The position numbers and the translations under genes are program-made. From Verrucomicrobiaceae bacterium (GTDB taxonomy: Bacteria > Verrucomicrobiota > Verrucomicrobiia > Chthoniobacterales > JAATET01), in the NCBI GenBank assembly GCA_027488755.1, contig JAIYAZ010000075.1, positions 64,492-128,491 of the forward strand: a DNA stretch of 64,000 nucleotides, given 5' to 3'. Under the pieces are notes generated by a model. That model did no database searches. It had not been told where the DNA came from and saw only the letters and a program-made list of their open reading frames with translations. Positions within the stretch are counted from its first letter, which is position 1. Each line of letters begins with the position of its first letter. Below are positions 16,881-52,852 of the stretch, piece after piece.

Positions 16881-16908
16881 AAAAAAACCCGGGAGGGTCT
16901 CCCGGGTT
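16881..16908 (-). terminator. Strong intrinsic terminator closing the glycan locus
   Basis: The minus strand reads AACCCGGGAG-ACC-CTCCCGGGTTTTTTT: a 9-bp GC stem, 3-nt loop and U7 tail, 26 nt after the stop of the last GT4 gene. Confidence 0.75.
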
Positions 16909-16933
16909 CATCTGGGCAGGATGGAGGGTTGGT

Positions 16934-18013
16934 TCAGGCAAGCCCGGCCAGGAAGGCGTCCACGTTTCGAGCGTTGTCGTGCAGCTCCGCGACGAAGCGT
17001 TCGCAGCCCCGCTGGCAGACGGCGAGTTCCTCCGCGTCCCCCAGCAACCGCCGGGCCGCGGCTTCGAACGCCGCAAAATCCCCCGCCGCGAAGGTCCCCG
17101 GCTCGAAGCGCCCGAAGAGGTCATCGGGATTCACGTCGAGCGAAAGGAGGGCGGCGGAGCCGAGGCCAGCCTGGATGAAGCTGTTCGGCCAACCCTCGAA
17201 GGTCGAGGTGTTCACAAAAAGCTTCGCGGCGTCGTATTCCGCCTGCACGTCGCGGTAGGGAACGCGTTCGACGAAGGTGAGGTTCGGCAGCGTGCCCGCG
17301 CGGGCGGCGACCGATTCCCAGAGCGTCACATCCTCACGCGGACAGACCATGCGGCAACGCGCGTCCGGCATACGCTCCACGAGGTCGAGGAAAAGGTGCG
17401 GGCGTTTGATCGGCTGGCAGCGCGCGATCCAGAGCAGGTCAACCGTCTTCGCCGCCGTGCGGGGCAGGGCGCGGGGCAGAATGAGGTTGCGATACATTCC
17501 GCCGGAAAGTCCCTGCCGCGCAAACTGCGTCGCCTGGTAATCGCTCATGGCCAGGCGGTGATCGGCCGCGCGCACGCCGGCCTCAAACAGCGCGCCGCGC
17601 AGGGGATTCTCGCGGCGAAACTCGCCGTTCACCTCGGTATCCAGCCCGCAGATGAAGACGATCCGCTCGGACCCGGCTCGCAGATAACGCAGGAGATACA
17701 GCCAGCTCGTCCAACCGAGCACGAGCAGATAGTCCGCTCTCTCCTCGCGGAGGATGCGTCGCACGCGCGGAATCGCGCGCGCCGTGTCGGCAAGGCCACC
17801 GGTTTGGAACGGTCCGCCGTTGCGGGTGCGCACGCCCTCAAAGACGGCGCCGTCCGCCTGCCCGATATCGCCACCGATGATCACCACCTCGTGCCCGCGA
17901 GCAACCAGCTCCCGCGCGAGCAGGGCAACCTGCAGCTCCGCGCCGCCGGAGACGCGATTGGCCGCGGGATCGAGCGCGAGGTGCGCGTAGCTGGAGAGAA
18001 AGCAGAACTTCAT
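16934..18013 (-). CDS. Glycosyltransferase, GT-B fold (GT4-like)
   Basis: Internal ATG (aa 45 of the track ORF): MKFCFLSSYAHLALDPAANRVSGGAELQVALLARELVARGHEV. C-terminal FVNTSTFEGWPNSFIQAGLGSAALL. Confidence 0.75.
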   Translation of the reverse strand: MKFCFLSSYAHLALDPAANRVSGGAELQVALLARELVARGHEVVIIGGDIGQADGAVFEGVRTRNGGPFQTGGLADTARAIPRVRRILREERADYLLVLGWTSWLYLLRYLRAGSERIVFICGLDTEVNGEFRRENPLRGALFEAGVRAADHRLAMSDYQATQFARQGLSGGMYRNLILPRALPRTAAKTVDLLWIARCQPIKRPHLFLDLVERMPDARCRMVCPREDVTLWESVAARAGTLPNLTFVERVPYRDVQAEYDAAKLFVNTSTFEGWPNSFIQAGLGSAALLSLDVNPDDLFGRFEPGTFAAGDFAAFEAAARRLLGDAEELAVCQRGCERFVAELHDNARNVDAFLAGLA

Positions 18014-19005
18014 CGCCGCACGGTGGCCGCCAGCATGCGCAGCCAGGGAATTCGCGGAAGCAGGCCCGGACGAAACGCCACGAGCGCGGCCAGAAAAGCG
18101 CCGCCCGCCCCGGCCCGGACGGCCCGGCCGTAAAGCGCGTAGCATTGCTCGGCGACCATGCGGGCAAAACCGGGCGCGGGCCGCCGGCCGCGCAGGAAGG
18201 CCGGCTCAAGCCCGGCCAGCGCCTCGAAGTATTCCCACCAGTCCCCCGGCAACGCCTCCGCCCAGGCCGAGGCAATCACGGGGCTCGCGTCAAATCCCGG
18301 GGCGACGGTTTCCATGTGCCGTTCGAGCACGGCCCGCACCGCGGACCGGCGGCGCACGGCGTCATCCGTGCGCGCCATGATCGACGCGGCGTGCAGCCGG
18401 TATTTCACGAGCGGTTCGCGCAACGTGACGACCGGAAACTCCTCCGCCACGCGGCCCCAGAGGTCGAGATCCTCGCAGGCCGGCTGATCGCGGTAACCAC
18501 CAAAGCGGTTCACAATGATGCTGCGCCGGAACACCGCGGCGGAGTGCGCAAAGGGTGCCCGGAAGCAGAGATCCCACGAGACCAGATCCGCGTGACCGCC
18601 CGTGCGCCAGCGTCCGCGGGGAGCCCCGCGGTCATCCACGAGCCACGCATCGCAACCGAGCAGCGGCACCGCGGGATTTCCCCGCAAGAAGGCGAGTTGC
18701 GCTGCGAGCCGGCCGGGGGCGCTGAGATCATCGGCATCCTGCCGCGCCACCCATTCCCCGCGAGCTTCGGCCAGCCCGCGGTTAAGCGCGGTAACCAGGC
18801 CGAGGTTGCGGTCGTGCCGGATCACGCGCAGGCGCGGATCGGCGAACTCCGCAAGCAGGCGCGGCGAGTCGTCCGTCGATCCATCATCGATCACGAGCAG
18901 TTCAAAATCGGTGAACGTCTGCCGCGCCACGCTCGCGAGGGTTTCCGGCAGATGCCGCGCCCCGTTGTAGAGCGGCATGAGAATGGTAACGGCGGGACGG
19001 CTCAT
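18010..19005 (-). CDS. Glycosyltransferase family 2 (GT-A)
   Basis: MSRPAVTILMPLYNGARHLPETLASVARQTFTDFELLVIDDGSTDDS, plus QDADDLS (DXD). There are 4-nt ATGA overlaps at both ends. Confidence 0.85.
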   Translation of the reverse strand: MSRPAVTILMPLYNGARHLPETLASVARQTFTDFELLVIDDGSTDDSPRLLAEFADPRLRVIRHDRNLGLVTALNRGLAEARGEWVARQDADDLSAPGRLAAQLAFLRGNPAVPLLGCDAWLVDDRGAPRGRWRTGGHADLVSWDLCFRAPFAHSAAVFRRSIIVNRFGGYRDQPACEDLDLWGRVAEEFPVVTLREPLVKYRLHAASIMARTDDAVRRRSAVRAVLERHMETVAPGFDASPVIASAWAEALPGDWWEYFEALAGLEPAFLRGRRPAPGFARMVAEQCYALYGRAVRAGAGGAFLAALVAFRPGLLPRIPWLRMLAATVRR

Positions 19006-20156
19006 CGGCAGAGGGCCTGGAAGATTTCCGCGTGGCGGTCGAGCCAGCGTTCGCGGTCGAACGAGCGCTCCGCCCACGAGCGGGCCGAGGCGGCGAAGTT
19101 TCCCTGCGCGCTCAGAATTTCCTCGACGGCGTCGGCCATTTCCGCGGCGCCGGGGGCGTGGTCCTGCGTCCAGTCATCCGGCACGGGAACCAGCCGGCCG
19201 CAATCGGCCGGGACGAGCTCCGGCATCCCGCCGCTGTGCGAGGCGACGACGGGCAGACCGCAGGCGAGCGCCTCGATGGGCACGGTGGGGCAGGGATCCT
19301 TGTATTTCGGGTGAAGGAGCACGTGCGCGGCACGGTAGAGCGCGGGAGCCTCGGCCTGAGTGAAACGCGGGCGCAGACGCACGTGATCGCGCAGGCCGCG
19401 CGACGCGATGTAATCCGCCACCTCGCGGTCACCGCCCGGCCAGCGGAATTCGCCCGCGATGGTCAGACGCACGGAACGTCCCCGCGCGATCAGCTCCGCG
19501 AGGGCGTCGAGCGAGGCGCGCACGCGGTAGAACGAGTGATTCGTGCCCATGGCAAGGAGTTCCCAGACGTTCAGCGGCGGGCGCACTGGCGCGGGCGAGA
19601 AGTGCACGAGATCGACCGGGTTCCACAGAACCTCCGCCGGTGCCGACGCGGGGCCGAGATAACGGTCCGCCGCCCCGCGGCAAAACTCGCTCTGGTAGAT
19701 CACGTGATCCGCCTGCGCGAGCAGGGCGCGCATCGGCTCATTGAACCACGGATAATGCCCGCCGCACCACGCGGGGTAAGCCACGCCGTTCTGATTCCAG
19801 ATGAGGGGAATCCCCTCCCCGCGCGCCCAGGCGACAAGTTCCTCCACGTGCGGCACGAGGTGCAGCGTGCTGCTCACGAGATAAATGACGTTGAATCGCC
19901 TCCGCTCCTCCCCAAAGCGCGCGCGGAGATGCGCGAACTTCACGGCTCCGCCAATGGCGGCCTCCTCGGGGCGGAGCGGATCCTCGATCCAGCCAAAGTT
20001 CAGCGCGGGGCCGCCCGACGGTGGCGGCGGCAGGGCCTGCAGGCGACGGCGGAACGCGCGGCGCCCGCGGACATGATACATCCGCCGCGCGAGCGCCACG
20101 GCGGATTCGCGCGCCCGGATGACCGGGGACACGGGCTCGACCATTCTTACGCCCAT
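19002..20156 (-). CDS. Glycosyltransferase, GT-B fold (GT4-like)
   Basis: C-terminal LLHPKYKDPCPTVPIEALACGLPVVASHSGGMPELV. The start is ambiguous (ATG at 20156 or 20144). Confidence 0.75.
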   Translation of the reverse strand: MGVRMVEPVSPVIRARESAVALARRMYHVRGRRAFRRRLQALPPPPSGGPALNFGWIEDPLRPEEAAIGGAVKFAHLRARFGEERRRFNVIYLVSSTLHLVPHVEELVAWARGEGIPLIWNQNGVAYPAWCGGHYPWFNEPMRALLAQADHVIYQSEFCRGAADRYLGPASAPAEVLWNPVDLVHFSPAPVRPPLNVWELLAMGTNHSFYRVRASLDALAELIARGRSVRLTIAGEFRWPGGDREVADYIASRGLRDHVRLRPRFTQAEAPALYRAAHVLLHPKYKDPCPTVPIEALACGLPVVASHSGGMPELVPADCGRLVPVPDDWTQDHAPGAAEMADAVEEILSAQGNFAASARSWAERSFDRERWLDRHAEIFQALCR

Positions 20157-20962
20157 GGCAAATCCCGCCCCAGCAGGGCGGCCAGCTGCGCGTTGCGCGG
20201 GCGGTAGAAGGCGCGCAGGGCCTGCTCGGTTTCCGCCGGCATCCATTCCTGATACCCGCCGTCGCGCGCGGGCGGGCGGGGCTCAAGATCCACGGCGGGA
20301 AGCCCCGCATGCGCCAACGCCCGCTGGGCCATGCCCACGGGATCGGCAAAAAATTCTTCGCTGATGAGAAACAAACACTGTTCGCGCGGAAACACCTCGA
20401 GCCAGCGCTCGACCGCCCGGGCATACCAGCCGCAGAGCACGTAGCGCGCGGGGCTCCAGGCATGACGCGCGGCCGCATCGACCAGCGGCAGCACCGACGG
20501 CTCGTCCAGCCAGCGCATGGCGCTGCTTACGTTCGCGGAGAAGTCCCCGCGGTCGGAGCCAAAGCGACGGAACATCTGGTAGTCCGACCAGGCGCGGCGC
20601 ACCGGATCGCGGAACAGGAAAATCACCCGCGCCTCGGGCAGGATCGCGCGGACGTTGCGGGGGGCGTCGGGATTAACGAAATACTCGACGCTGCCGTCGC
20701 CGACGACAAACCGGCTTCCCGGCAGGCGCAGCGGGTAATTCATCGCCGCGCGCAGGCGGCTGCCGGGGTAATGCACAAAGTTCGTCGGCTCCTTGCGGGC
20801 GCCCCGCCGCACGCCGGGATGCTCGCTCATGATGTCGTAGAGAGTGGAGGTGCCGCACTTCGGCGCGCCCGCAATGACAAAGCCGGGCAGGGCGCGACAC
20901 GGAGCCGTGAGCAGACGCCAGGCCTTGTCGATTTCAAAGCGAAGGTCGGGGGGGCGAATCAT
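20147..20962 (-). CDS. PAPS-dependent sulfotransferase (compact, ~271 aa)
   Basis: 5'-PSB loop FVIAGAPKCGTSTLYD and 3'-PB motif FLFRDPVRRAWSDY. Start at the internal ATG (aa 19), which overlaps the upstream stop. Confidence 0.8.
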   Translation of the reverse strand: MIRPPDLRFEIDKAWRLLTAPCRALPGFVIAGAPKCGTSTLYDIMSEHPGVRRGARKEPTNFVHYPGSRLRAAMNYPLRLPGSRFVVGDGSVEYFVNPDAPRNVRAILPEARVIFLFRDPVRRAWSDYQMFRRFGSDRGDFSANVSSAMRWLDEPSVLPLVDAAARHAWSPARYVLCGWYARAVERWLEVFPREQCLFLISEEFFADPVGMAQRALAHAGLPAVDLEPRPPARDGGYQEWMPAETEQALRAFYRPRNAQLAALLGRDLPWA

Positions 20963-22062
20963 GCGGAGAGTTCGGCGCGAATGCGGTCGGCCATCCTGCG
21001 GCAGACGGCGTCCCAAGTGAAGCGCGCGCTGGCGAATTCCCGGGCGGCCGCTCCCATTTGCTCGCGGCGCGTTCCGTCCGCCAGCAGCTCCAAGAGCGCG
21101 GGAGCGAGGCTCTCCGGCGCACGCAGGAAACCCGTCTCGCCGTCGCGCACGCGTTCGGCGTTCCCACCCACCGGCGTGGCGACCACGGGCAGACCGTGCA
21201 ACGCCGCCTCACCGATCACCGAGGCCGATGGATCCATGCGGCTCGGCAGGCAAAACACCGCCGCCTCGCGGTAGAAGTCCGCGACCCGTTCCGGTGCCAC
21301 CCGCCCGACAACTCGCACCCCCGGCTCGTGGATCGCGGGGGAACACCCGACGATCCACAGCTCCGCCTCCGGCCGCGCGGCCCGCACCGCGCGAAAGGCC
21401 GCGAGCAGTTCCGGCCCGCCCTTGCGCTCCCAGTCCACGCCCACAAAAAGAATCGCGGCGGGATTTCGCGAAGCGGAGGACGCCGAGAGCGGAACGTTTT
21501 GGCCGGAGAATACGCACTCCACGCGCTCCGCCGGCACCGCGTAATCCTCGCGCACCGAGGCCGCGGCAAACTCGCTGGAAACAAAGTTCACCGTCGCCCG
21601 GCGGTAGAGCGTGCGCTCCATTTCGAGCCACCCGCGCGGCACGGGCAGAAGCGGACGCGGCTGGGCGTAGCGGCGGTTCGCGAGATACGTGTGGTCGGAG
21701 TAGAGAAAGTGCGGCACGCCCTCACGCCGGGCATCAAAAAGCGACTGGGTTTGGAAAACTAACGCCGTGCGGGCCGGGTCGACCTCGCGTTCCACCCATT
21801 GGTGGATGGCCCGACCAACCACGTTCAGACGCGGAAAGAAATCCCGCGGCGGCTGTCGTTGCGCCACGATGCGCGGGCCGTAGCGAAACGCGGCCTCGAC
21901 GTGCGCGCGGAGTAAGAGCCCGGCGGAACCGCGCACGATGTCGCGCTCCACGTCCACGACGCGCCACGCGAGGTCCGGAAACTCGGCTCGCAGACCGCGC
22001 TCCACGGCGTCGTTGATCAACGAAAACGCGCCGATGCGGAAAAAATACGCCCCGCGTTTCAT
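20959..22062 (-). CDS. Glycosyltransferase, GT-B fold (GT4-like)
   Basis: Internal ATG (aa 53): MKRGAYFFRIGAFS... C-terminal FCLPSRMDPSASVIGEAALHGLPVVATPVGGNAERVRDGETGFL. Confidence 0.8.
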   Translation of the reverse strand: MKRGAYFFRIGAFSLINDAVERGLRAEFPDLAWRVVDVERDIVRGSAGLLLRAHVEAAFRYGPRIVAQRQPPRDFFPRLNVVGRAIHQWVEREVDPARTALVFQTQSLFDARREGVPHFLYSDHTYLANRRYAQPRPLLPVPRGWLEMERTLYRRATVNFVSSEFAAASVREDYAVPAERVECVFSGQNVPLSASSASRNPAAILFVGVDWERKGGPELLAAFRAVRAARPEAELWIVGCSPAIHEPGVRVVGRVAPERVADFYREAAVFCLPSRMDPSASVIGEAALHGLPVVATPVGGNAERVRDGETGFLRAPESLAPALLELLADGTRREQMGAAAREFASARFTWDAVCRRMADRIRAELSA

Positions 22063-23174
22063 GTCCCGGATTCGTTCAGAATGCGTTGGACGAAACCCGC
22101 GTGTTCCCGCGCCACCACCGACGTGGCGTAGCGGGCCGCGACGACCGCGCGCGCGGCCTCGCCGGCTTCCCGGCGACGCTCGGGATATTCCAGAAGATCG
22201 GTCAGCGCGACGTGCCACGCGGCGGATGAGTCGGCGAGCACCACCGCGCCCGGATCAGCCACATCCGCGACATCTCGATAGCTGGGCACCGGACTCGCCA
22301 CGGCCGGGAGGCCGACCGCCATACCGAGCGTGATCTTCCACTCCGTGTGCGAAAGATTGTAGGGCACGTCGAGAAAGCGGGGGGAAACAATCACTCCGCC
22401 GGCCGCGTAAAGATCGAGCAGCGCACGAACGCCCGTGAACCGGTGGCAGGTGTGCGGCACGCGGCGCAGGAACGCATCGACCCGGTCGCGAACTGCCTCG
22501 GGCCAGCGTTGGCGGGCGGCGTCGAGGTCATCCGTCACGAGGTGGAGATGAATGTGATCGGCCAGCGCCAGGAACGCCTCCTCGGCGGCGAGGAATTCAA
22601 ACACCTTGGCCGCCATGCCGCTCCACCACACCTGGAGCCGGCCATCGCGGAGTCCAGAGCCGGTTGGTTGCTTGGGGGCGAGCTGGAGGTTCACGTTATC
22701 GGGCACCCACGCGGCGTTGGGATTCACCTGGGCGCAGACCCGCGTAAGGTGGCGCGAGGAGGCGATCACCCCGTCGGCGAAATCCGTGATGCCAAGCGCC
22801 GCGGCTCGCTGGGCCGGCGTGGGGGCCATCACGTCCAGACTCACCTCGCCGGCGACGTGCGTGTAATAATCGACGTTGGCCTCGAAGATTACCTTCGTTC
22901 CCTGCGCGCGGAGGCGGCGGGCCAGGTCGAGGCACTGCGAGCCCATCGACTTCAGGAAAACCACCGCCGCATAGCGCCGCCCGGGCCGGTAGAGTTCGTA
23001 GCGCAATTCGGAAGACCCGGCCGCGAGCGCCTCGGCAATCCACCGGAAGCGCATGAAGCTCATTGGCGAAGCCGCATCATCCCAGCCGAACAGGAGCGCG
23101 GGCGGGCGCATGCCCCGCGCGAGCGAACTCCAAGCGGGCACGCGGCTGTTGATGATGAAGCCGATGCGTTTCAC
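22059..23174 (-). CDS. GT-B-fold glycosyltransferase-like protein (divergent)
   Basis: 371 aa. MKRIGFIINS..., C-terminal SPRFLDVPYNLSHTEWKITLGMAVGLPAVASPVPSY. GTG start in a GTGA overlap with the upstream stop. Confidence 0.55.
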   Translation of the reverse strand: MKRIGFIINSRVPAWSSLARGMRPPALLFGWDDAASPMSFMRFRWIAEALAAGSSELRYELYRPGRRYAAVVFLKSMGSQCLDLARRLRAQGTKVIFEANVDYYTHVAGEVSLDVMAPTPAQRAAALGITDFADGVIASSRHLTRVCAQVNPNAAWVPDNVNLQLAPKQPTGSGLRDGRLQVWWSGMAAKVFEFLAAEEAFLALADHIHLHLVTDDLDAARQRWPEAVRDRVDAFLRRVPHTCHRFTGVRALLDLYAAGGVIVSPRFLDVPYNLSHTEWKITLGMAVGLPAVASPVPSYRDVADVADPGAVVLADSSAAWHVALTDLLEYPERRREAGEAARAVVAARYATSVVAREHAGFVQRILNESGT

Positions 23175-25817: not shown

Positions 25818-25824
25818 GAAAAAA

Positions 25825-28432: not shown

Positions 28433-28497
28433 TCGTTCCCGTAGCGGGTAGCGGATTTCCGGGCGGCGTTCAACGCCGCGTTTCCCGGAGGGCGGCC

Positions 28498-31122: not shown

Positions 31123-31148
31123 GGTTTTGGTGGCGGGTTCGGCGCGGT

Positions 31149-39026: not shown

Positions 39027-39170
39027 CGGGCGGCTGCGACGGTGAGCAGGGAGACAACAGGCAAACTTCCGAGGGCCTCAGGGGGCGAAAACAACGGGGT
39101 AATCACGGGGAGTTAATGAGCGCAGAAACCGCCACGGATTGCCAGAAACGAAACGCAAGTCGCCACCGCT

Positions 39171-41491: not shown

Positions 41492-41495
41492 GGGA

Positions 41496-45004: not shown

Positions 45005-45011
45005 GGAAACG

Positions 45012-45980: not shown

Positions 45981-45997
45981 CGGGTCGGGACGACGGA

Positions 45998-47026: not shown

Positions 47027-48903
47027 GGGATGGGGTCAAGGATTTGAAGGCGGATGGCGGCCTCGATGACAACGGGTTCATCGGCCGGAACAAAGGTTTC
47101 GTCGATCTCCTGCGCGGAATACTCCAGGCGGAGAACGTGTTCGCCGTTCGCGAATTCGCGGTGCGCGACCTTGGGGAGAATCCACGCGCCCGCGGGGTCA
47201 ACCTCGAGGCGAACGGTCCGATGGCGGTCGCCGATCGCGAAGATGCCCTCGGTCATTCCGAGGCAAAACTCCGATGACGTGAGCCAGGAAACGGCGCTGA
47301 CGTGGTCGACGTCACGGCCGGCGAGCGGGAAACGCTCGAGGCGCCCGCCGCCATTGTGGGTGGCGTAGAAAAGGGTCGCGGGGTCCCAGGCTGAGGGCGG
47401 AAACGAAAAATGGAAGAAGCGGATGATCTCGCGGGCGCGGCGGGGCAATTCGAGCCGGCGCGCCAGCAGGACGGCACCGTCCCGAAGCGCCACGGTGGTG
47501 TCGATGGTGGCCCAGTCATACCGCTGGACGGCGCGGACAAAATCCTCTCCCGCGGTGACGGCGGTGGTTCCCCCGTGGCGGTCCAGGGAGGATTTCAGGC
47601 GCTCGCCGGGGCGGTGGATGACGACATTGCCCGAAAAGAAGTCCGCCCCGAACTCGATGATGGAGAGCGTTCCGTGCGGCACGGAGCCGAGCACGGCGGG
47701 TTCGCCGGAGCGGCCGAACCCGCGGAGGGTGAGCCCGGTGGCCGGGTCCAGTTCGACCCAGGCCGAGGCATCCTCGAGGCGGAAGCCGCGCGCGGAGGGG
47801 CGGGGCACCGCGGTGCCGCGGCGGGCAAACGGCCCGGGCGCGGGGATCGGAACCGCATCGAGCCGGCGGCGAAAGGCCTCCCAGCGCGCCGGGGTGATGT
47901 GAGTGCGAAAATCGCTCGACCAGAGCGCGCACAACTCGGCGTCGGAAAATCCGGGCGTGCGGGCCAGGCGATGGCAGCGCGAGTTGACGGCGAGATTGTC
48001 GCGTCCGCTGAGGGCCCAGCGGTTCGCGTTATACTTGCGCTGTTTTTTGACGACGATGGGTTGTTCGGGCGACTCCAGTTGGACGGGTTCGCGCGGTCCG
48101 GCGGAGGCAAGAACCTCGGACGGGAAGAGAAACCGGTGCCCCTCGGCGCGCAGCCGTCCGACCTGGGCCGCGAGGGTGTCCCATTCGGCGGGGCCGACGG
48201 CCTCCTCGGTGTCGAAGCGGCCGGGGCGGAAGCCGAAGGCCTCGGCGTCGTTGCAGTAGAAGGCGGCGTAGTCGCCGGGGCGGCGGCCGGCGTGACGGGC
48301 GACGAAGTCATGGTAGTCGTCCTCGGTGATGGCGCCATGCACGACCCGCTGAAGCTGCTGGAAGAACATGGTATCGGCCCAGAGCAGGGGCAGGGCGCGA
48401 CCGTCGGCGGCGGACACCTCGCAGGCGCGGAACTGGCGGTCGGCCGGCCAATCGTGGAAGCGGGCGGCGTTGTTCCACTCCATGATGAGGGCGTCGAATC
48501 CGGCCTCCAGGTAGAGGTCGACGAGACCGCCGGAGTAGGTCATCTCGTTGACCAGGGCGATGCGCGGGCGCACGCCGAGGAGGGATTGGTAGCGGTCCTG
48601 GCCGAGGGCGAGATTGGCGCGATTGACGCGGGCGGGAACGAGCGGGCCGATGATCTGGGCGTATCCGCTCCCGACGAGCTCAACCGCCCCGGCGGCGAGA
48701 AGGTCGCGGAGTTTGGCGATCCAGGCCGGATCGAGGTCGGCGATGATTTCGGCGGTGAGGCCGGTGAGTTCGACGCCGACGGGCACGCCGCTTTCCGCCA
48801 GCCGCAGGAGCGGCCAGTAACAGCGGGTGATCACCTCCATGCGGCTTTCCTCGGGAATCGAGGAAAACATGAGGTTGAGGTGGAAGACGGCGTAGAAGTT
48901 CAT
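47023..48903 (-). CDS. GH57-like / (beta/alpha)7-barrel carbohydrate-active protein (626 aa)
   Basis: The internal ATG (aa 16) gives MNFYAVFHLNLMFSSIPEE...VELVGSGYAQIIGPLVP...LVNEMTYSG, resembling the GH57 N-terminal catalytic region. The C-terminal ~300 aa are unassigned. Confidence 0.45.
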   Translation of the reverse strand: MNFYAVFHLNLMFSSIPEESRMEVITRCYWPLLRLAESGVPVGVELTGLTAEIIADLDPAWIAKLRDLLAAGAVELVGSGYAQIIGPLVPARVNRANLALGQDRYQSLLGVRPRIALVNEMTYSGGLVDLYLEAGFDALIMEWNNAARFHDWPADRQFRACEVSAADGRALPLLWADTMFFQQLQRVVHGAITEDDYHDFVARHAGRRPGDYAAFYCNDAEAFGFRPGRFDTEEAVGPAEWDTLAAQVGRLRAEGHRFLFPSEVLASAGPREPVQLESPEQPIVVKKQRKYNANRWALSGRDNLAVNSRCHRLARTPGFSDAELCALWSSDFRTHITPARWEAFRRRLDAVPIPAPGPFARRGTAVPRPSARGFRLEDASAWVELDPATGLTLRGFGRSGEPAVLGSVPHGTLSIIEFGADFFSGNVVIHRPGERLKSSLDRHGGTTAVTAGEDFVRAVQRYDWATIDTTVALRDGAVLLARRLELPRRAREIIRFFHFSFPPSAWDPATLFYATHNGGGRLERFPLAGRDVDHVSAVSWLTSSEFCLGMTEGIFAIGDRHRTVRLEVDPAGAWILPKVAHREFANGEHVLRLEYSAQEIDETFVPADEPVVIEAAIRLQILDPIP

Positions 48904-48916
48904 GACCGGGGCGACC

Positions 48917-50104
48917 CTACGCCGGACCGAGGGCACGCACGGCGGCAATCACGCGGTCGGTATCGGCGTCGGTGAGCGCGGGATAGAGCGGGAGCGAAAG
49001 GGCTTCGGCGTAGAACGCCTCGGCGCGGGGGCATTTGCCGACGGCATAGCCATACGTGCGGCGATACCAGGGCTGAAGGTGGACGGGGATGTAGAGCACC
49101 TGGGAGCCGACGCCGGCGGCGCGCAGTTCCGCCATGACGTCGGCGCGGGAGCGGCCGAGGGCGCCAAAGTCGAGGCGAACGGTGTAAAGGTGCCAGGAAA
49201 TGTGCGGGCGGTCCGCCTCGCTCCGGAGGCCGGGACGTTGGAGCCAGGGGAGGTCGGCGAAGGCGTCGTCGTAGCGGGCGACGATTTCGCGGCGGCGGGC
49301 GACGAACGCGGGAAGCCGCCGAAGCTGGCTGCGGCCGAGGGCGCACTGAAGGTCGGTGATGCGGTAGTTCCACCCGAGTTCCTGCATCTCGTAGACCCAC
49401 GGGCCGGTCTCGGCGCCGCCTAGTCCGACCAATCGGGCGGGGTCGCGCTCCATGCCGTGACTGCGCAGGAGGCGGGCCCGGCGGGCGTATTCGGGATCGT
49501 CGGTGACGAGCATGCCGCCCTCGCCGGTTGTCATGGTCTTGACGGGATGGAAGGAGAACGTCGTGAGATCGGCCCAGGGGTGGCCGCCGAGTTTCCAGGG
49601 ACGTTCGTCGTGGACGAAGGCGCCGCCCACTCCGTGGCAGGCATCCTCAATGACCACGGCGCCGCGCGCACGGGCGACGGCGGCGAGGGCGGGAAGGTCC
49701 GCGCTCTGGCCGGCGTAGTCGACGGCGACAACGGCCCGGGTGTCGGGGCGCCATGTCGCGGCAAGGGCCGCGGGGTCGAGCGTGGCGGAGACGGGATCGA
49801 TGTCCGCAAAATCGGGGGTGGCGCCGACGAAGGCGGCCGCGTTCGCGGAGGCAAGGAAGGTGATCGGCGAAGTGACGACGCGCGAGCCGGGACCCACGCC
49901 CGCAACCACCATGGCGAGGTGGAGCGCGGCCGTCGCGCTGTTCACCGCCACGGCGTGGGTGGCGCCGACGGCGGCGGCGAACTCGCGTTCAAACGCCTCG
50001 ACCTCGGGCCCGCAGGTGAGCCAGTCGGAGCGCAGCACCGCGGCCGTGGCCTCGACGTCGGCGTCGTCCACGGCCTGCCGGCCATACGGGAGAAAGGGGG
50101 GCAT
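48917..50104 (-). CDS. pseC: UDP-4-amino-4,6-dideoxy-N-acetyl-beta-L-altrosamine transaminase-like (PseC / DegT family)
   Basis: Internal ATG (aa 51): MPPFLPYGRQAVDDADVEATAAVLRSDWLTCGPEVEAFEREFA...FSFHPVKTMTTGEGGM (PLP-Lys). Confidence 0.8.
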   Translation of the reverse strand: MPPFLPYGRQAVDDADVEATAAVLRSDWLTCGPEVEAFEREFAAAVGATHAVAVNSATAALHLAMVVAGVGPGSRVVTSPITFLASANAAAFVGATPDFADIDPVSATLDPAALAATWRPDTRAVVAVDYAGQSADLPALAAVARARGAVVIEDACHGVGGAFVHDERPWKLGGHPWADLTTFSFHPVKTMTTGEGGMLVTDDPEYARRARLLRSHGMERDPARLVGLGGAETGPWVYEMQELGWNYRITDLQCALGRSQLRRLPAFVARRREIVARYDDAFADLPWLQRPGLRSEADRPHISWHLYTVRLDFGALGRSRADVMAELRAAGVGSQVLYIPVHLQPWYRRTYGYAVGKCPRAEAFYAEALSLPLYPALTDADTDRVIAAVRALGPA

Positions 50105-51105
50105 CAAACGGAGAACGCCGGATCGACGTGCGCGCGAATGAGGGTGCGGAGTTCCTCGACGGTGAGCCACTCGGTGTTCGCCCCGCTGTTGTAGCTGAAG
50201 TCGGGGGCGCAGCGGCGGCCGCCGAAGCGGGTGAGGTATTCGCCGGCGTCCCAAAGCGGAATGGCGGGGGTGATGACGAAGTGGCGGTCAAACTCGAGGG
50301 CGCTGAGTCCGTCGGTGGCGGTGATCATTTCCTCGTGGAGTTTTTCGCCGGGACGGATGCCGACGTATTCGAACCGGGCGTCCGGGGCGACGGCGCGGGC
50401 GACGTCGCCGATGCGGTAGCTGGGAATCTTCGGCACGAAGATCTCCCCGCCCCACATCGAGAGCAGGGCATGGAGAACGAGGCTGACCCCGTCCTCGAGC
50501 GTGATGTTGAAGCGGGTCATGCGCTCGTCGGTGATGGGCAGGACGCCATCGCGCCGGCGTTCGAGGAAAAAGGGAATGACGCTGCCACGGCTGCCCATGA
50601 CGTTCCCGTAGCGGACGACGGAGAAGCGGATGTCGTGGCGGCCGCGGAAGTTGTTGGCCGCGACGAAGAGCTTGTCCGAGCAAAGCTTGGTGGCGCCGTA
50701 GAGGTTGATGGGGGCGGCGGCCTTGTCGGTGCTGAGGGCGACGACCTGGCGGACGCCGCTGGCGATGGCGGCATCAATGACGTTCTGCGCGCCGAGGACG
50801 TTGGTCTTGATCGCCTCGAAGGGATTGTATTCGCAGGCGGGCACCTGTTTGAGGGCCGCGGCGTGGATGACGATGTCCACGCCTTCCATGGCCCGGCGGA
50901 GGCGGTCGGCGTCGCGCACGTCGCCGATGAAGTAGCGCATGGACGGGCCGTCGAAGCGCTGGCGCATTTCAAACTGCTTGAGCTCGTCGCGGCTGAAGAT
51001 GATGAGCTTGGCGGGGTTGAGTTCCCGCAGGGCGATCTCGGTGAATTTCTGGCCGAAGGAGCCGGTGCCGCCGGTGATGAGAATAACGGGCTGATCGATG
51101 TTCAT
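50104..51105 (-). CDS. pseB: UDP-N-acetylglucosamine 4,6-dehydratase (inverting), PseB/FlaA1 family
   Basis: Internal ATG gives 333 aa: ILITGGTGSFGQKF, FIGDVRD, STDKAAAPINLYGATKL, VVRYGNVMGSRGSVIPFF. Confidence 0.88.
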   Translation of the reverse strand: MNIDQPVILITGGTGSFGQKFTEIALRELNPAKLIIFSRDELKQFEMRQRFDGPSMRYFIGDVRDADRLRRAMEGVDIVIHAAALKQVPACEYNPFEAIKTNVLGAQNVIDAAIASGVRQVVALSTDKAAAPINLYGATKLCSDKLFVAANNFRGRHDIRFSVVRYGNVMGSRGSVIPFFLERRRDGVLPITDERMTRFNITLEDGVSLVLHALLSMWGGEIFVPKIPSYRIGDVARAVAPDARFEYVGIRPGEKLHEEMITATDGLSALEFDRHFVITPAIPLWDAGEYLTRFGGRRCAPDFSYNSGANTEWLTVEELRTLIRAHVDPAFSV

Positions 51106-51989
51106 GAAATACGGGGAGAGGCGGCGAGCCACTCGTGAATGCAGGATTCGAGGGCGATGCGCAAGTTTGATGGCTCCCAGTCGGGGAGCAGGGAGCGAAG
51201 GGTGGTGATGTCCGCCAACCAGCGCGAGGGATTCCCCGCGTGCGACTGACCGGCAAAGTGAAGGGTGGCGTCGGGGCGCAGTAGATCGCGCAGGGTGACG
51301 GCTAGGGTGTGAACGGAAATGGCCCGGCCGGCCGCGACGTTCACCGCCTGAAAGCCCGGGGCCTGCGGCGCGAGCCGGGCGATGAGCCGAACGGTTACCG
51401 CGGCGGCGTCCCGCTCTTCGATGTAGTCCCGCTCCTCGTGGCCGGTGCCGCGGAGGCTGACGCCGCCCGCGCGAAGCTGCTCGAAGATTTCCCAGACGAG
51501 GAGGCGGCGTTGGTGGGGGCCGAAGATGGAAAAGTAGCGGAGGGCGAGCACAGGGAGGCCGAAGCAGGCGGCGTATTCGCGGCCGAGGGTCTCGGCGAGG
51601 ACCTTGTGGAAGCCGTAGGGGGATTCGGGGCGGAGGTCGGCCGTCTCCGCGACGGGCAGCGCCGCGGGCGAGCCGTAGACGGCGGCGCTGGAGGCGAGGA
51701 CGACGGCGGGGCGGAGGCCGGATGACCGCACGCCTTCGAGCACGCGCTGGGTGAGGGCGGTGGAGGCGGCGAAGTCCGCGTCGGGGTTCGTGAGCGAGTC
51801 GCCGACCGAGGCGGAGCCGGCGAAGTGGAGCACGACGTCGGGCGCGGCGGCGCGGACGCAGGCGGCCCATGTGGCGGGGTCGCGCAACTCGGCGCGGCCG
51901 GCGGGGAGGACAGTCCAATCGGCCGCGGTGGCGGCGCGGGCGACCGCGCCGCCGAGGAAGCCGGTGGTGCCGGTGACGAGGACTCTCAT
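51102..51989 (-). CDS. NAD-dependent epimerase/dehydratase-family SDR
   Basis: Internal ATG gives 295 aa: MRVLVTGTTGFLGGAV, SSAAVYG, PESPYGFHKVLAE (YxxxK). Confidence 0.8.
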   Translation of the reverse strand: MRVLVTGTTGFLGGAVARAATAADWTVLPAGRAELRDPATWAACVRAAAPDVVLHFAGSASVGDSLTNPDADFAASTALTQRVLEGVRSSGLRPAVVLASSAAVYGSPAALPVAETADLRPESPYGFHKVLAETLGREYAACFGLPVLALRYFSIFGPHQRRLLVWEIFEQLRAGGVSLRGTGHEERDYIEERDAAAVTVRLIARLAPQAPGFQAVNVAAGRAISVHTLAVTLRDLLRPDATLHFAGQSHAGNPSRWLADITTLRSLLPDWEPSNLRIALESCIHEWLAASPRIS

Positions 51990-52852
51990 GCGCTCCAGCG
52001 CTCGACGAGGAGGGGGATGGACACGCGGAGCACGACGAGCCCGAGGATGAGCAGCGGGATCGTGATCGCGACGACGAGGAGGAAGTTCGGCAGGAGCGTG
52101 AGGGGCTGTCCGGCGATCATTTCCCGGATGGTGACGATAAGGGGCGAGACGGGGTTGAGCCGGACGGTGGTGGCGAAGAGCCCGGCGTAGTGGGGATAGG
52201 GGTAGGCGATGGGCGTGATGGTGAGCCAGACCATGGTGGCGATGGGCAGGGAGTTGCTCACGTCGCGGTAGAGCATGCCGATGGGGGCGAGGAAGAGCCC
52301 GAGCATGGTGCCGAGGGCGACCAGCGCGGCGACGCCGAACGGCACGAGCAGGAGGGAGGCGGTGACGGGAACTTGGAACCAGATGAAGGTCGCGGCGATG
52401 AGCACGGTCTGCACCGTAATGGTGACGGTGAGCTTGCAGAGGTCGGCGATGAGGATGGATTCGCGGGGGAAGCGGACCTTGGTGAGCAGGCCCTTGTTCG
52501 ACTGGAGCGCGCTCATTGGGCCGCTGAGCGAGGCGGTGAAGATCTGCCAGAGCGAGACGCTGATCAGGACGAAGGCGGGATAGGGCAGATGGGTTTCGCC
52601 GGGGTTTACGAGGTTGTTTGACCGGGCGACGGTGAGCATGACGGCGAGGAAGATCGGGGGACCGACCAGCCACACGAGGCCGAGAAGGGACTGGCGGTAT
52701 TGGGCCTTGATGTCGCGGATGGCGAGGGCGACGCCGAGTTTGCGGCTCTGGACGATGTCGGTGAAGAGCTCGCGGAGGAGGCGGCCCGGGCTGCGGATCG
52801 CGCTTTCGGCGGAGTAGATGCTGACCTGGTGGTGACCACTTTCGAGACTCAT
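51986..52852 (-). CDS. wzm: Polysaccharide ABC exporter permease (ABC-2 / Wzm type)
   Basis: 288 aa. AIRDIKAQYRQSLLGLVWLVGPPIF is the ABC-2 N-terminal signature. Six hydrophobic segments. Confidence 0.85.
   Translation of the reverse strand: MSLESGHHQVSIYSAESAIRSPGRLLRELFTDIVQSRKLGVALAIRDIKAQYRQSLLGLVWLVGPPIFLAVMLTVARSNNLVNPGETHLPYPAFVLISVSLWQIFTASLSGPMSALQSNKGLLTKVRFPRESILIADLCKLTVTITVQTVLIAATFIWFQVPVTASLLLVPFGVAALVALGTMLGLFLAPIGMLYRDVSNSLPIATMVWLTITPIAYPYPHYAGLFATTVRLNPVSPLIVTIREMIAGQPLTLLPNFLLVVAITIPLLILGLVVLRVSIPLLVERWSA

Follow-up and report, generated by a model that had tools for sequence, protein, structure and literature searches.

A 36-kb block in the window (the whole analysed stretch of 64,000 nucleotides) probably constitutes a single locus for the biosynthesis and export of a surface glycan, predicted from protein sequences and structural models to be a sulfated polymer with a Pse-type nonulosonate, exported by a Wzm/Wzt transporter. 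The order of the genes around this system recurs in related metagenomic loci, in which the position of the nonulosonate genes is taken by other cassettes.

Organization of the locus

The GC3 frame-plot chain reveals minus-strand coding that is unbroken from position 52852 to position 16934, with GC3 values of 0.80–0.91 in all genes and 99% of the span covered by genes. Our recount gives 31 genes in the block (g1–g31), all on the minus strand, instead of the 35–36 consecutive coding sequences of the preliminary description; the calls for g19–g31 match, apart from a few start codons, independent gene calls in a Logan contig from this organism. The earlier statement that most genes are joined by 4-nt overlaps was generous, as such overlaps occur at 15 of the 30 junctions and overlaps of any length at 22. 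Nor does the run start at wzm, since same-strand genes extend upstream: the stop codon of nadE is separated from the start of wzm by 12 nt, and nadE is itself preceded on this strand by genes for a CudC-like regulator and BipA. The possible start of the transcription unit is nadE.

52865..54790, minus strand: nadE, glutamine-dependent NAD synthetase (Pfam CN_hydrolase and NAD_synthase)
29305..29332, minus strand: sigma-70-like site (TTGCCT-16-CATAAT, 9 of 12 matches)
16885..16909, minus strand: intrinsic terminator ending the run (stem-loop with T7 tail, folding energy)

The single strong terminator described earlier at the end of the run is borne out by its 11-bp stem (7 G-C pairs, 3-nt loop), its T7 tail and its free energy of -22.7 kcal/mol (z = -4.2), equally good folds being found in 0 of 200 shuffled sequences. 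We allow for a division of the 31-gene run into more than one transcription unit, in view of the three gaps between genes (144 nt between g11 and g12, 211 nt between g18 and g19, 65 nt between g19 and g20) and of the promoter-like sequence at 29332–29305. No further sigma-70-like site occurs in the region; this one sits in the 211-nt gap and is a possible internal promoter, and one site found against 1.1 expected is not significant by itself.

Export genes

51986..52852, minus strand: g1, Wzm, ABC-2 permease (Pfam ABC2_membrane, E = 1e-8)
36167..37558, minus strand: g13, Wzt ATPase with a Wzt_C-like C-terminal domain (Pfam ABC_tran)

With its six hydrophobic segments, g1 is the sole protein of the locus that has multiple TM-like segments; its match to the NCBIfam Wzm/RfbD-like model (E = 4e-16) stays below the cut-off. 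The nucleotide-binding domain of g13 finds the O-antigen Wzt of Aquifex aeolicus as the best PDB match (6AMX/7K2T, E = 2e-51), and its C-terminal domain, searched alone, comes close to the Wzt_C threshold (29.7 bits, cut-off 30.4, E = 7.5e-7). The Wzm/Wzt assignment made earlier is thereby supported; the two genes do not adjoin, wzt being placed 14.4 kb downstream of wzm. None of the 31 genes encodes a Wzx, a Wzy, a synthase or an outer-membrane export protein. Because no other exporter is present and TM segments are restricted to Wzm, we consider it likely that the locus is of the ABC-transporter-dependent, O-polysaccharide-type kind. We count against this explanation the absence from the window of genes for a priming transferase, a ligase or an oligosaccharyltransferase.

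The nonulosonate cassette

Nine genes between wzm and wzt (g3–g11), beginning with PseB and PseC, form the nonulosonate cassette. Their GC content (0.695) is like that of the rest of the window (0.67–0.68), which argues against a recent import. The preceding gene, g2, probably lies outside the cassette, since a counterpart with 52% identity is present in the related metagenomic locus L004, which lacks the Pse cassette.

51102..51989, minus strand: g2, SDR epimerase/dehydratase-like, 295 aa (Pfam Epimerase, E = 7e-37)
50104..51132, minus strand: g3, PseB, UDP-GlcNAc 4,6-dehydratase (inverting) (TIGR03589)
48917..50107, minus strand: g4, PseC aminotransferase (TIGR03588)
47023..48948, minus strand: g5, GH57-like, 641 aa (Pfam Glyco_hydro_57, residues 54–164, E = 2e-10)
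45998..47026, minus strand: g6, NeuB-family nonulosonate synthase with SAF domain (Pfam NeuB, E = 4e-70)
45012..45980, minus strand: g7, weakly PseG-like, candidate UDP-sugar hydrolase (NCBIfam PseG)
42752..45004, minus strand: g8, 750-aa cytidylyltransferase-methyltransferase fusion (Pfam)
41496..42755, minus strand: g9, L-amino-acid-ligase-type ATP-grasp ligase (Pfam ATP-grasp_4; LAL_C2, E = 1.5e-20)
40334..41491, minus strand: g10, methyltransferase domain at residues 211–357 (Pfam Methyltransf_11/25)
39171..40352, minus strand: g11, GT-B fold with a C-terminal helix of 60 residues (AF2 model)

Of the PseB, PseC, PseG and PseI homologs proposed earlier, the former two pass the NCBIfam equivalog cut-offs (g3: 515 bits, cut-off 408; g4: 446 bits, cut-off 423.5), while the latter two fall below theirs: g7 reaches 75 bits with the PseG model (cut-off 154, E = 9e-21) and has no Pfam match, and g6 scores 265 bits against 400 for NeuB and 242 against 340 for PseI. 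The fusion protein g8 combines a CMP-sugar cytidylyltransferase (CTP_transf_3, residues 8–220), a class I methyltransferase (Methyltransf_23, 429–586) and a sugar C-methyltransferase C-terminal domain (Methyltransf_14, 632–714); its cytidylyltransferase part is KdsB-like and does not match the PseF model. Of the fusions of this type proposed earlier, it is the only one verified; the N-terminal ~200 aa of g10 match no family at E ≤ 10. Pfam recovers PseB-, PseC- and NeuB-like proteins as well as the proposed ATP-grasp ligase (g9), and PseH is absent from the locus. Because the synthase, hydrolase and cytidylyltransferase remain below every equivalog cut-off, the identity of the sugar is uncertain; the weak PseG and PseI scores, the lack of a PseF-model match and the absence of PseH therefore point to a derivative of the Pse type whose synthesis follows a non-canonical route. 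This route appears closer to the sfm flagellin-glycan module of Shewanella (PMC3765264) than to the textbook pathway: in Shewanella oneidensis, a pair of an ATP-grasp protein and a methyltransferase of ~390 aa (sfmD/sfmE) is required for the flagellin glycan, which contains a nonulosonate, and g10 resembles SfmD (395 aa) in size and order (PMC3765264).

Homologs of g5 number more than 2,700, and in all four contexts examined (L012–L015) they adjoin genes for LAL-type ATP-grasp, NeuB-family and cytidylyltransferase proteins, with PseB and PseC genes nearby in three (L012, L013 and L015). The unrelated metagenomic locus L012 contains orthologs of all nine genes at 43–74% identity (g3 74%, g9 72%), in the same order save for g11, which is shifted to the front; the presence of the whole set there suggests that g3–g11 form a self-contained unit.

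The last member, g11, represents a rare type that travels with Pse genes. It has no sequence match in Pfam, NCBIfam or PDB; Foldseek matches of its AF2 model (pLDDT 81) are GT-B proteins, namely UDP-GlcNAc 2-epimerases (3e-5), followed by GtfA and the Kdo transferase WaaA. Its homologs adjoin Pse genes in L012 and in L009, where the Pse cluster is canonical and independent of this one; a remoter homolog is located in a cluster of glycosyltransferase genes that also includes a gene for a SIS (KpsF-like) isomerase. A role other than that of a transferase is possible, as the closest fold matches are the epimerases and TM-scores are only ~0.3. We propose g11 as a candidate nonulosonate transferase or capping enzyme.

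Sulfotransferases

32981..34984, minus strand: g15, 667 aa, two domains (motifs, profile, AF2 model)
31149..32984, minus strand: g16, 611 aa, paralog of g15 sharing its two-domain architecture (sequence, motifs)
20147..20962, minus strand: g28, stand-alone sulfotransferase, Sulfotransfer_1/3, HS 3-OST/NDST-like (Pfam)

The locus encodes three PAPS-type sulfotransferase domains. All three motif pairs reported earlier are present, and a motif search found a single exact occurrence of each of the six quoted peptides: PKCGTS (position 34) and RDPVRRAWS (118) in g28; PKTAGSS (435) with LRDPVDRTVSHY in g15, where RDPVDRTVS is at 514; and PKTAGSS (385) with LREPAERMVSHY in g16, where REPAERMVS is at 465. 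As to the three sulfotransferases themselves, g28 is a clear stand-alone one (Sulfotransfer_3 1.4e-14, Sulfotransfer_1 1.1e-13; PDB matches 3RNL 2.6e-17 and HS 3-OST-3A 3.6e-17), while in g15 and g16 they are C-terminal domains of ~245 aa within single ORFs. In g15, an unassigned alpha/beta domain (~1–420) is followed by an HS2ST/HS6ST-like domain (~425–660); g16 shares 34% identity with g15 across 495 aa.

A profile of the C-terminal domain shared by g15 and g16 matches HS 2-O-sulfotransferase (E = 2e-5) with the PKTAxxS, GH and RDPxERxVS motifs aligned. Pfam Sulfotransfer_2 is matched by 25 of the 60 family members, across which G491, H492, R514, P516 and S522 (g15 numbering) are invariant, and the AF2 model of g15 (pLDDT 82.6) has HS6ST and HS2ST as its best Foldseek matches. 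Thus, profiles and the g15 fold support the prediction of sulfotransferases, and the C-terminal domains of g15 and g16, as judged from sequence and model, match the heparan-sulfate 2-O/6-O-sulfotransferases. Genes for PAPS synthesis (cysDN, cysC, cysQ) are absent from the window, which we count against the proposed function.

Glycosyltransferases

37575..39026, minus strand: g12, GT4 glycosyltransferase (Pfam Glycos_transf_1)
34998..36170, minus strand: g14, GT2 glycosyltransferase, conserved core (Pfam Glycos_transf_2)
16934..31185, minus strand: g17–g31, downstream glycosyltransferase block (Pfam)
30187–31185, minus strand: g17, GT2 (Pfam)
29351–30190, minus strand: g18, GT2 (Pfam)
28498–29139, minus strand: g19
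27749–28432, minus strand: g20
26904–27752, minus strand: g21
25825–26907, minus strand: g22, GT4 (Pfam)
24837–25868, minus strand: g23, GT4 (Pfam)
23965–24840, minus strand: g24
23171–24001, minus strand: g25, GT2 (Pfam)
22059–23174, minus strand: g26, GT4 (Pfam)
20959–22062, minus strand: g27, GT4 (Pfam)
19002–20156, minus strand: g29, GT4 (Pfam)
18010–19005, minus strand: g30, GT2 (Pfam)
16934–18013, minus strand: g31, GT4 (Pfam)

Pfam reproduces both earlier counts, with GT4-type domains in seven genes (g12, g22, g23, g26, g27, g29, g31) and GT2-type domains in five (g14, g17, g18, g25, g30), so that the locus has 12 recognizable glycosyltransferases and ~5 unassigned candidates. The paralogs g14 and g17 share 52% identity. 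In the downstream block, no family in Pfam or NCBIfam is significantly matched by g19, g20, g21 or g24, and for the glycosyltransferases NCBIfam indicates generic GT2/GT4 similarity without assigning sugar specificity. At least 12 glycosyltransferases are unusually many for a Wzm/Wzt polymer, which also counts against the proposed explanation.

A conserved core with a replaceable slot

The core arrangement (nadE-wzm…GT4-wzt-GT2-g15-g16…) is common to at least five related metagenomic loci with other cassettes in the slot. The order GT4-wzt-GT2-g15 is kept in L004, L007, L010, L016 and the JGI 3300056388 contig, and nadE adjoins wzm in L004, L007, L010 and probably L016, the four loci that reach that far. 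A g12-type GT4 gene is directly upstream of wzt in every related locus compared: L004 has a gene 60% identical to g12 in the equivalent position, and the gene before wzt is likewise of the GT4 type in L016 and the JGI contig. Identity to g14 is 62–69% in L004, L007 and L010; g16 is kept in these three loci and in L011, and synteny at 55–85% identity extends over g17–g21 in L004 and over g17, g18 and g20 in L010. The core is thus composed of wzm, GT4, wzt, GT2, g15, g16 and g17–g21, adjoining nadE. Between wzm and the GT4-wzt pair lies a slot with replaceable content: in the five loci it is empty or contains methyltransferases, a hexapeptide acyltransferase, or DegT with CTP_transf_3, and in this genome it carries the nonulosonate cassette.

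Proposed pathway and precedents

We propose that the chain would be started at the cytoplasmic face, with undecaprenyl phosphate as the carrier, by a priming enzyme encoded elsewhere, extended by the GT2 and GT4 enzymes, and O-sulfated by g15, g16 and g28 within the cytoplasm, which provides PAPS; sulfation at this stage fits a pathway that completes the glycan before export. The cassette would yield a Pse-type nonulosonate activated with CMP: g3 and g4 would produce UDP-4-amino-4,6-dideoxy-L-AltNAc, which the LAL-type ligase g9 could N-acylate in place of the missing PseH, followed by removal of UDP by g7, condensation with PEP by g6 and addition of CMP by g8, with tailoring by the methyltransferase domains of g8 and g10 and by GH57-like g5. 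The sugar could then be transferred by g11, probably to a terminal or side-chain position, and the finished lipid-linked glycan exported by Wzm/Wzt.

Structurally proven sulfated capsules with ABC exporters and cluster-encoded sulfotransferases are known from Cobetia and Vibrio (PMC11766843, PMC11641403), and sulfotransferases have also been noted in ABC-type clusters of cyanobacteria (PMC8205485). PAPS-synthesis genes were described as a hallmark of sulfated-polysaccharide clusters in the study of the Vibrio sp. KMM 8419 capsule (PMC11641403); the clusters of this strain and of Cobetia (PMC11766843) carry cysDN/cysC/cysQ, unlike the window analysed here. In Legionella pneumophila, wzm/wzt, nonulosonate synthesis and methylation come together in the LPS locus of 31–36 kb (PMC3766260). 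The preliminary description knew of no characterized Wzm/Wzt locus that joins sulfation with nonulosonate synthesis; this triple combination recurs in L012, where the cassette is accompanied by a Wzt-like ATPase and by three genes for sulfotransferases, the glycosyltransferases being otherwise different. As every ingredient of the locus is already known in bacteria, we regard the locus not as a novel type of system but as a new combination.

Gene content and limits of the locus

From wzm through to the final GT4 gene, the region is a real glycan locus with clear limits. The G+C content of the window is 68%, and raw ORF lists are therefore crowded with spurious frames; the gene set was taken from a third-position-GC frame plot combined with chained ORF selection, which yields an unbroken minus-strand series. 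It comprises 31 genes (g1 to g31), instead of the 35-36 CDSs counted in the preliminary description, and covers 99% of the span bounded by wzm (51986-52852) and the final GT4 gene (16934-18013). The calls for g19-g31 match independent calls on the Logan assembly of the same organism. Overlaps of 4 nt are present at 15 of the 30 junctions, and an overlap of any length at 22.

Genes of the run and the signal that ends it (all on the minus strand)
g1: Wzm, ABC exporter permease
g2: SDR protein (Pfam, NCBIfam)
g3-g11: nonulosonate cassette
g12: GT4 glycosyltransferase
g13: Wzt, ABC exporter ATPase
g14: GT2 glycosyltransferase
g15 and g16: large proteins
g17-g31: four further GT2 and six further GT4 glycosyltransferases, the unassigned small proteins g19, g20, g21 and g24, and the stand-alone sulfotransferase g28
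16909-16885: intrinsic terminator (11-bp stem, T7 tail, -22.7 kcal/mol, z = -4.2)

The otherwise tight packing is interrupted by three gaps, which precede g12 (144 nt), g19 (211 nt) and g20 (65 nt). The sole sigma-70-like site in 40 kb falls within the 211-nt gap, a count of one being the chance expectation. Terminator-like hairpins between positions 15000 and 34999 of the window are twice as numerous as in shuffled sequence (27 vs 13.7 +/- 3.7), and all of them save 16909-16885 lie within coding sequence. Rfam and tRNA scans of the window gave no matches. At the other end, the same-strand run starts before wzm, since the stop codon of nadE is found 12 nt upstream of the wzm start (window 52853-52864); a CudC-like HTH gene and bipA lie upstream of nadE on the same strand. 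Given this 12-nt spacing and an adjacency that recurs in related loci, it is possible that the housekeeping gene nadE shares a transcript with the glycan genes or serves as their anchor.

Just past the terminator, on the same strand, are genes for a DUF6600 protein of 488 aa (15338-16804) and for a 493-aa protein without a family (13831-15312). The plus strand carries, at 9636-13749, a gene for a McsB-type arginine kinase followed by a ClpC-like gene (Clp_N, UVR, double AAA), a protein-quality-control pair better known from Gram-positive bacteria. A further sugar aminotransferase of the DegT/DnrJ family (455 aa, 2641-4008, minus strand) is encoded 13 kb outside the locus. The GC skew is -0.16 to -0.18 over the plus-strand genes (8-14 kb) and +0.1 to +0.3 over the minus-strand genes; it tracks gene orientation and therefore reflects a coding strand that is C-rich throughout, not a replication signal.

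A conserved core and a swappable slot

Full-length homologues of g15 are few, and a metagenome scan yielded just two extra loci (L010 and L011). Five related metagenomic loci were compared (L004, L007, L010, L016 and a contig from JGI 3300056388). The order wzt-GT2-g15 is kept in all five, and a g16-like gene comes next in those that reach far enough. Three of them (L004, L016 and JGI 3300056388) have a GT4 gene immediately ahead of wzt, while L007 and L010 have a longer GT4 gene downstream of g15 rather than upstream of wzt. The adjacency of nadE and wzm is found in all four loci that reach far enough upstream (L004, L007, L010 and L016), together with the CudC-like HTH gene in L007 and L010 and with bipA in L007. 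On the other side, g17-g21 are kept in L004, and g17, g18 and g20 in L010, at 55-85% identity. Genes g3-g11 are absent from all five related loci, in which the interval from wzm to the wzt-proximal genes is occupied as follows.

Content of the slot in the related loci
L004: two methyltransferases, a hexapeptide acyltransferase and one gene without an assignment
L016: three methyltransferases
JGI 3300056388: a DegT protein, a CTP_transf_3 protein, a hexapeptide protein and a methyltransferase
L007 and L010: empty

Searches with g5 led to L012, an otherwise unrelated 207-kb contig with orthologues of all nine genes g3-g11 (43-74% identity). On this contig the neighbours of the cassette are a Wzt-like ATPase, other large glycosyltransferases and three sulfotransferase genes (5553-6500, 19696-20325 and 21235-21932). 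The three differ in Pfam type, and one of them adjoins the g11 orthologue. Since five loci with the core lack g3-g11 and the whole cassette recurs in L012, the locus is, judged by gene content, a conserved core with a swappable slot, filled here by a portable cassette for a nonulosonate. That ABC export, sulfotransferases and the cassette occur together is no isolated case. Recent horizontal acquisition of the cassette was considered and is ruled out by its composition (GC 0.695, vs 0.67-0.68 elsewhere in the window).

The nonulosonate cassette

The first two genes of the cassette pass the NCBIfam equivalog cut-offs, g3 for PseB (TIGR03589, 515 bits, cut-off 408) and g4 for PseC (TIGR03588, 446 bits, cut-off 423.5), which by profile assignment fixes the first two steps of the pathway. 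The following six products are less orthodox.

Products of g5-g10 (bit scores against model cut-offs)
g5: GH57-like protein, 641 aa
g6: NeuB-family synthase; PseI model 242 vs 340, NeuB model higher, 265 vs 400
g7: weakly PseG-like protein, 75 vs 154
g8: 750-aa fusion of a cytidylyltransferase (CTP_transf_3 domain), a methyltransferase and a C-methyltransferase-like domain
g9: LAL-type ATP-grasp ligase, 419 aa
g10: methyltransferase, 385 aa, with an N-terminal half without a family match

The NCBIfam model of PseF is unmatched, though the CTP_transf_3 domain is present, and none of the 31 proteins matches an acetyltransferase family in Pfam or NCBIfam that could represent PseH. We infer that g9 would N-acylate the PseC product, substituting for PseH, and that g8 and g10 would methylate the sugar product. 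The likeness of g5 to a GH57/NodB-like barrel invites the speculation that it is a deacylase. Set against the canonical PseB-C-H-G-I-F pathway of Campylobacter and Helicobacter (NCBIfam TIGR03584-03590), the cassette opens with proteins that pass the PseB and PseC models (g3 and g4), followed by a synthase of the NeuB family, a protein resembling PseG and a CMP-transferase domain; however, PseH is missing, the synthase, hydrolase and cytidylyltransferase score under their cut-offs, and there are extra genes, for the GH57-like protein, for an ATP-grasp ligase, and for two methyltransferase domains plus one of the C-methyltransferase-like kind.

More than 2,700 proteins belong to the g5 family. 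In all four contexts studied (L012-L015) a g5 homologue adjoins a gene for a LAL-type ATP-grasp protein, together with NeuB-family and long cytidylyltransferase genes, and in three of the four PseB and PseC genes are also nearby. L014 is a deltaproteobacterial MAG carrying the g5-type module. L015 is plasmid pDCAR1 of Solidesulfovibrio carbinolicus (NZ_CP026539.1, 87-99 kb), whose module bears the generic annotations methyltransferase, ATP-grasp, "glycoside hydrolase" (39% identical to g5), pseB and pseC; the plasmid additionally has pseF, fabG, a split transketolase and a NeuB-family gene. In L013, a Rhizomicrobium MAG (GCA_035549495.1), the module adjoins flagellin genes. The modules of L013 and L015 include an SDR and a split transketolase, and in this they mirror sfmABCDE of Shewanella oneidensis (PMC3765264), where a NeuB-domain protein, a SAM methyltransferase of ~395 aa and an ATP-grasp ligase of ~412 aa are required for a nonulosonate-based glycan; as in the present locus, clear PseH/G/I/F are lacking in Shewanella. 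The likeness of these proteins to g10 and g9 is one of domain and size only. The sfm operon differs in its role, flagellin O-glycosylation, and in a TPP enzyme and an SDR that are missing here.

A Sulfotransfer_3 gene (2141-2938) lies inside the sfm-like nonulosonate module of L013, beside two flagellin genes, flaF and flbT, a layout that hints at a sulfated flagellin glycan. We know of no description of such a glycan in bacteria.

The last gene of the cassette, g11, encodes a protein of 393 aa that gave no Pfam or NCBIfam match even at E <= 10 and no PDB sequence match (a PDB search with the g5 sequence gave no useful match either). Only eight homologues were found among 5.8 billion proteins. 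One (in L009) comes after a complete canonical Pse cluster, another belongs to the L012 cassette, and a more distant one lies amid glycosyltransferases and a gene for a KpsF-like SIS isomerase. The AlphaFold2 model (pLDDT 81) has a GT-B fold followed by a 60-residue helix; all 28 Foldseek matches in the PDB at E <= 1e-3 are to the GT-B superfamily, with TM-scores of ~0.3, and include UDP-GlcNAc 2-epimerases, GtfA, SdgB and the Kdo transferase WaaA. The best reading, on the grounds of gene neighbourhood, is that g11 is a predicted transferase for a CMP-activated sugar; an epimerase- or hydrolase-like function is a possible alternative.

Predicted Wzm/Wzt-type export

Wzm (g1) matches Pfam ABC2_membrane (35 bits vs the 26.9-bit cut-off), contains six hydrophobic segments and is the only one of the 31 proteins with multiple hydrophobic or TM segments. 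Its likeness to the NCBIfam Wzm/RfbD model (E = 4e-16) is under the equivalog cut-off, as is that of g13 to Wzt/RfbE (E = 7e-50). The best relatives of g13 in the PDB are A. aeolicus Wzt (E = 2e-51), TagH/TarH and mycobacterial RfbE, and its C-terminal domain alone scores 29.7 bits against Wzt_C (PF14524, cut-off 30.4, E = 7.5e-7), the carbohydrate-binding domain of those Wzt proteins that export capped chains. Among the related loci this domain is 47-49% identical, vs 72-84% for the nucleotide-binding domain. Its divergence is uninformative as a test of cap reading: identity is ~48% to all relatives, whatever cassette they carry.

No Wzx flippase, Wzy polymerase or synthase was matched in Pfam or NCBIfam by any of the 31 proteins, and the PCP/OPX, priming-transferase, ligase and acetyltransferase families are likewise unmatched. 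KpsE, KpsD and KpsS/KpsC are absent from the genes of the locus and window, and the likeness of g1 to KpsM is only E = 2e-5 (NCBIfam). With their defining genes absent from the locus, Kps-type capsule and Wzx/Wzy pathways are ruled out. Neither a WecA-type Und-P priming enzyme nor a lipid A-core ligase is encoded in the 64-kb window; such genes often sit elsewhere in the genome, and their absence is compatible with a Wzm/Wzt pathway. By analogy to established Wzm/Wzt systems, the glycan chain would be fully built on its lipid carrier in the cytoplasm and then exported, an arrangement with which PAPS-dependent sulfation should be compatible.

Export of capped O-polysaccharides is known from E. 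coli O9a (WbdD, Wzt-C) and from Klebsiella O12/Raoultella (WbbB, beta-Kdo cap), where Wzt has an extra C-terminal domain and genes for methyltransferases or ulosonic-acid transferases adjoin wzm/wzt. In the locus neither WbdD nor WbbB was matched by sequence or by fold; the GT-B fold and long helix of g11 are loosely like the terminating Kdo transferase and coiled coil of WbbB. That the product of the cassette forms a terminal cap, recognised by the C-terminal domain of Wzt, is speculative.

Sulfotransferase candidates

The preliminary description had quoted six sulfotransferase motifs, all of which are exactly present, in g15, g16 and g28, and profile searches and, for g15, a structure search, which it had named as the way to refute the assignment, bear it out. 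The motifs follow the PKxGT/S-S/T (5'-PSB loop) and RxPxxRxxS (3'-PB) patterns of PAPS-dependent sulfotransferases. g28 scores above the Pfam cut-offs for Sulfotransfer_1 and Sulfotransfer_3 and matches heparan-sulfate 3-O-sulfotransferases and NDST in the PDB, down to 4e-17. The other two motif pairs fall in the last ~245 residues of two paralogues with 34% identity, g15 (667 aa) and g16 (611 aa). As single sequences these fall under the Pfam cut-off (20.5 vs 22 bits), while a profile built from six domains of the g15/g16 type matches HS 2-O-sulfotransferase at E = 2e-5, with an alignment that spans PKTAxxS, the GH dipeptide and RDPxERxVS. A library-wide HMM search found 1,453 relatives of the domain, mostly stand-alone proteins of ~240 aa; Pfam Sulfotransfer_2 (PF03567) is matched by 25 of 60 sampled. 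In 60 family sequences G491, H492, R514, P516 and S522 are invariant, and K436, T437 and G439 nearly so.

The AF2 model of g15 (pLDDT 82.6, pTM 0.81) has HS6ST (1e-5) and HS2ST (2e-4) as its top Foldseek matches in the PDB, followed by many SULT/3-OST structures. Ahead of the sulfotransferase domain, the first ~420 residues of g15 and g16 make up an alpha/beta domain that was modelled with confidence and has no detectable relative. The complete two-domain architecture of g15 and g16 is rare, with ~6 clusters at 50% identity among 1.84 billion representatives; in GTDB-representative genomes the g15/g16 profile found a lone distant match, in an alphaproteobacterial MAG (L008, 33% over 99 aa), and searches of plasmids with g15 and g11 gave zero matches. 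The locus provides three sulfotransferase candidates, two of them with a rare two-domain architecture and with heparan-sulfate 2-O/6-O enzymes as relatives. Bacterial polysaccharide sulfotransferases are barely characterised, and sulfated glycans are biotechnologically valuable.

Glycosyltransferases and proteins without a family

Pfam searches returned the seven GT4 and five GT2 genes of the preliminary description. With NCBIfam, ten glycosyltransferases searched for clues to their sugars showed generic GT2/GT4 likeness only. Weak-hit Pfam scans gave for g21 only matches to GT-A families at E ~0.25, and for g19, g20, g24 and the N-terminal half of g10 nothing relevant (for g20, one unrelated family at E = 0.1); the label "DXD glycosyltransferase" for the orphan proteins, drawn from motifs, is a guess. 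Among the GT2 genes, g14 (34998-36170) and g17 (30187-31185) are paralogues with 52% identity, and g18 (29351-30190) is 37-38% identical to both. This similarity suggests tandem-duplicated transferases, perhaps for a repeating backbone.

Comparison with known systems and alternative explanations

Among the closest counterparts is the LPS locus of Legionella pneumophila serogroup 1 (PMC3766260), a region of 31-36 kb with at least 28 ORFs, wzm/wzt export of a legionaminic-acid O-antigen, nonulosonate synthesis (aminotransferase, NeuB, NeuA, NeuC), methyltransferase tailoring and a hypervariable sub-region beside wzm/wzt. It differs by its Leg route (NeuC/NeuB/NeuA), a homopolymeric product, few glycosyltransferases and no sulfotransferases, whereas the locus described here has a PseB/PseC start, at least 12 glycosyltransferases and three sulfotransferase domains. 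The capsule clusters of Cobetia marina KMM 1449 (PMC11766843) and Vibrio sp. KMM 8419 (PMC11641403) share ABC export, cluster-encoded sulfotransferases and many glycosyltransferases, and sulfation of their products was chemically proven. They have Kps-type machinery (KpsMTED, KpsS/C), in-cluster cysDN, cysC and cysQ and no nonulosonate pathway, in contrast to the Wzm/Wzt system with a Wzt_C-like tail of the window, which contains no Kps and no PAPS genes. In the xss cluster for synechan of Synechocystis PCC 6803, two sulfotransferases are clustered with eight glycosyltransferases and a sulfated polymer was genetically proven, but the pathway is Wzx/Wzy-dependent, has a dedicated regulator (XssQRS) and is without nonulosonate (PMC8205485). 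The study also notes EPS clusters of cyanobacteria that contain sulfotransferases, ABC-type ones among them. Pontiella has a sulfotransferase gene in a GT2/GT4-rich cluster. Each pair of the three features, ABC export, sulfation and nonulosonate synthesis, is precedented; that no characterised locus has all three, as proposed earlier, agrees with our literature search, which found no paper combining them.

The predicted sulfation and nonulosonate content of one exported glycan is reasonable but unproven, and three other explanations were weighed against it. The locus could be composite, with two or more adjacent pathways or transcription units (e.g. g1-g18 and g19-g31) that make different products, just one of them exported by Wzm/Wzt. 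The 211-nt gap between g18 and g19 with its sole sigma-70-like site, the further gaps of 144 and 65 nt, and a glycosyltransferase number that is very high for an ABC-dependent polymer would fit such a division, and conservation in relatives was seen up to g21, the flanking sequences of these loci ending before g22-g31 with g28. Yet g19-g31 include no second exporter, flippase, polymerase, synthase or multi-TM protein, g19-g21 are linked to g17-g18 in L004 (g20 likewise in L010), no strong terminator lies ahead of 16909 and genes overlap at 22 of the 30 junctions; we consider a composite locus unlikely.

It is quite improbable that the cassette serves glycosylation of a protein (flagellin, pilin or S-layer protein) and that its position between wzm and wzt is incidental. 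A module of GH57-like, ATP-grasp, methyltransferase, PseB/C, NeuB and long cytidylyltransferase genes does adjoin flagellin genes in the Rhizomicrobium MAG, and an ATP-grasp and methyltransferase pair is needed for flagellin modification in Shewanella (PMC3765264). Against this, flagellin, Maf and oligosaccharyltransferase genes are absent from the 64-kb window, the cassette sits here and in L012 in ABC-exporter loci rich in glycosyltransferases and sulfotransferases, and its slot is filled by other glycan-tailoring genes in relatives. The sulfotransferase-like domains might also be inactive scaffolds or act on another substrate (a lipid, a small molecule or a nonulosonate precursor). Genes for PAPS supply are absent from the window, g15 and g16 as single sequences fall under the Pfam cut-offs, and Aeromonas salmonicida has a wzt-adjacent sulfotransferase-domain gene with no matching sulfate in its known O-antigen structure (PMC4483657). 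However, 60 family members show little or no variation at the PAPS-binding residues K436, T437, G439, R514 and S522 and at the catalytic-position GH491-492, three independent sulfotransferase genes occur in one glycan locus and three more in L012, and the Cobetia and Vibrio capsules are ABC-exported glycans proven to be sulfated; that these domains do not sulfate the glycan is very improbable.

Implications

Of greatest interest in the locus are the architecture of g15 and g16, a core that swaps its cassettes, and the portable cassette itself together with the candidate transferase that it encodes. Genes for nonulosonate tailoring (a GH57-like protein, an ATP-grasp ligase of the LAL type, a methyltransferase and a long CMP-transferase) form a widespread, uncharacterised module with more than 2,700 homologues, which occurs in polysaccharide loci, on a plasmid and next to genes for flagellin; g11 in turn defines a candidate family of transferases for sugars of the nonulosonate type. 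These findings extend known pathway logic to a new combination and do not overturn current understanding.

A broader reading, which we offer tentatively and regard as doubtful, is that the core represents a new way to finish and gate an ABC-exported glycan. In this case g15 and g16, always beside wzt, would be chain-modifying or terminating enzymes, and the cassette in the wzm-wzt slot would set the cap at the non-reducing end, here a methylated, aminoacylated Pse-type sugar put on by g11, which would open an as yet undescribed family of nonulosonate/ulosonate transferases; the C-terminal domain of Wzt would then read the cap prior to export. If this is true, surface variation in the related bacteria of soil and rhizosphere would come from exchanging cap cassettes on a constant sulfated backbone. 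The core-plus-cassette layout is a testable model of surface-antigen diversification in uncultured bacteria.
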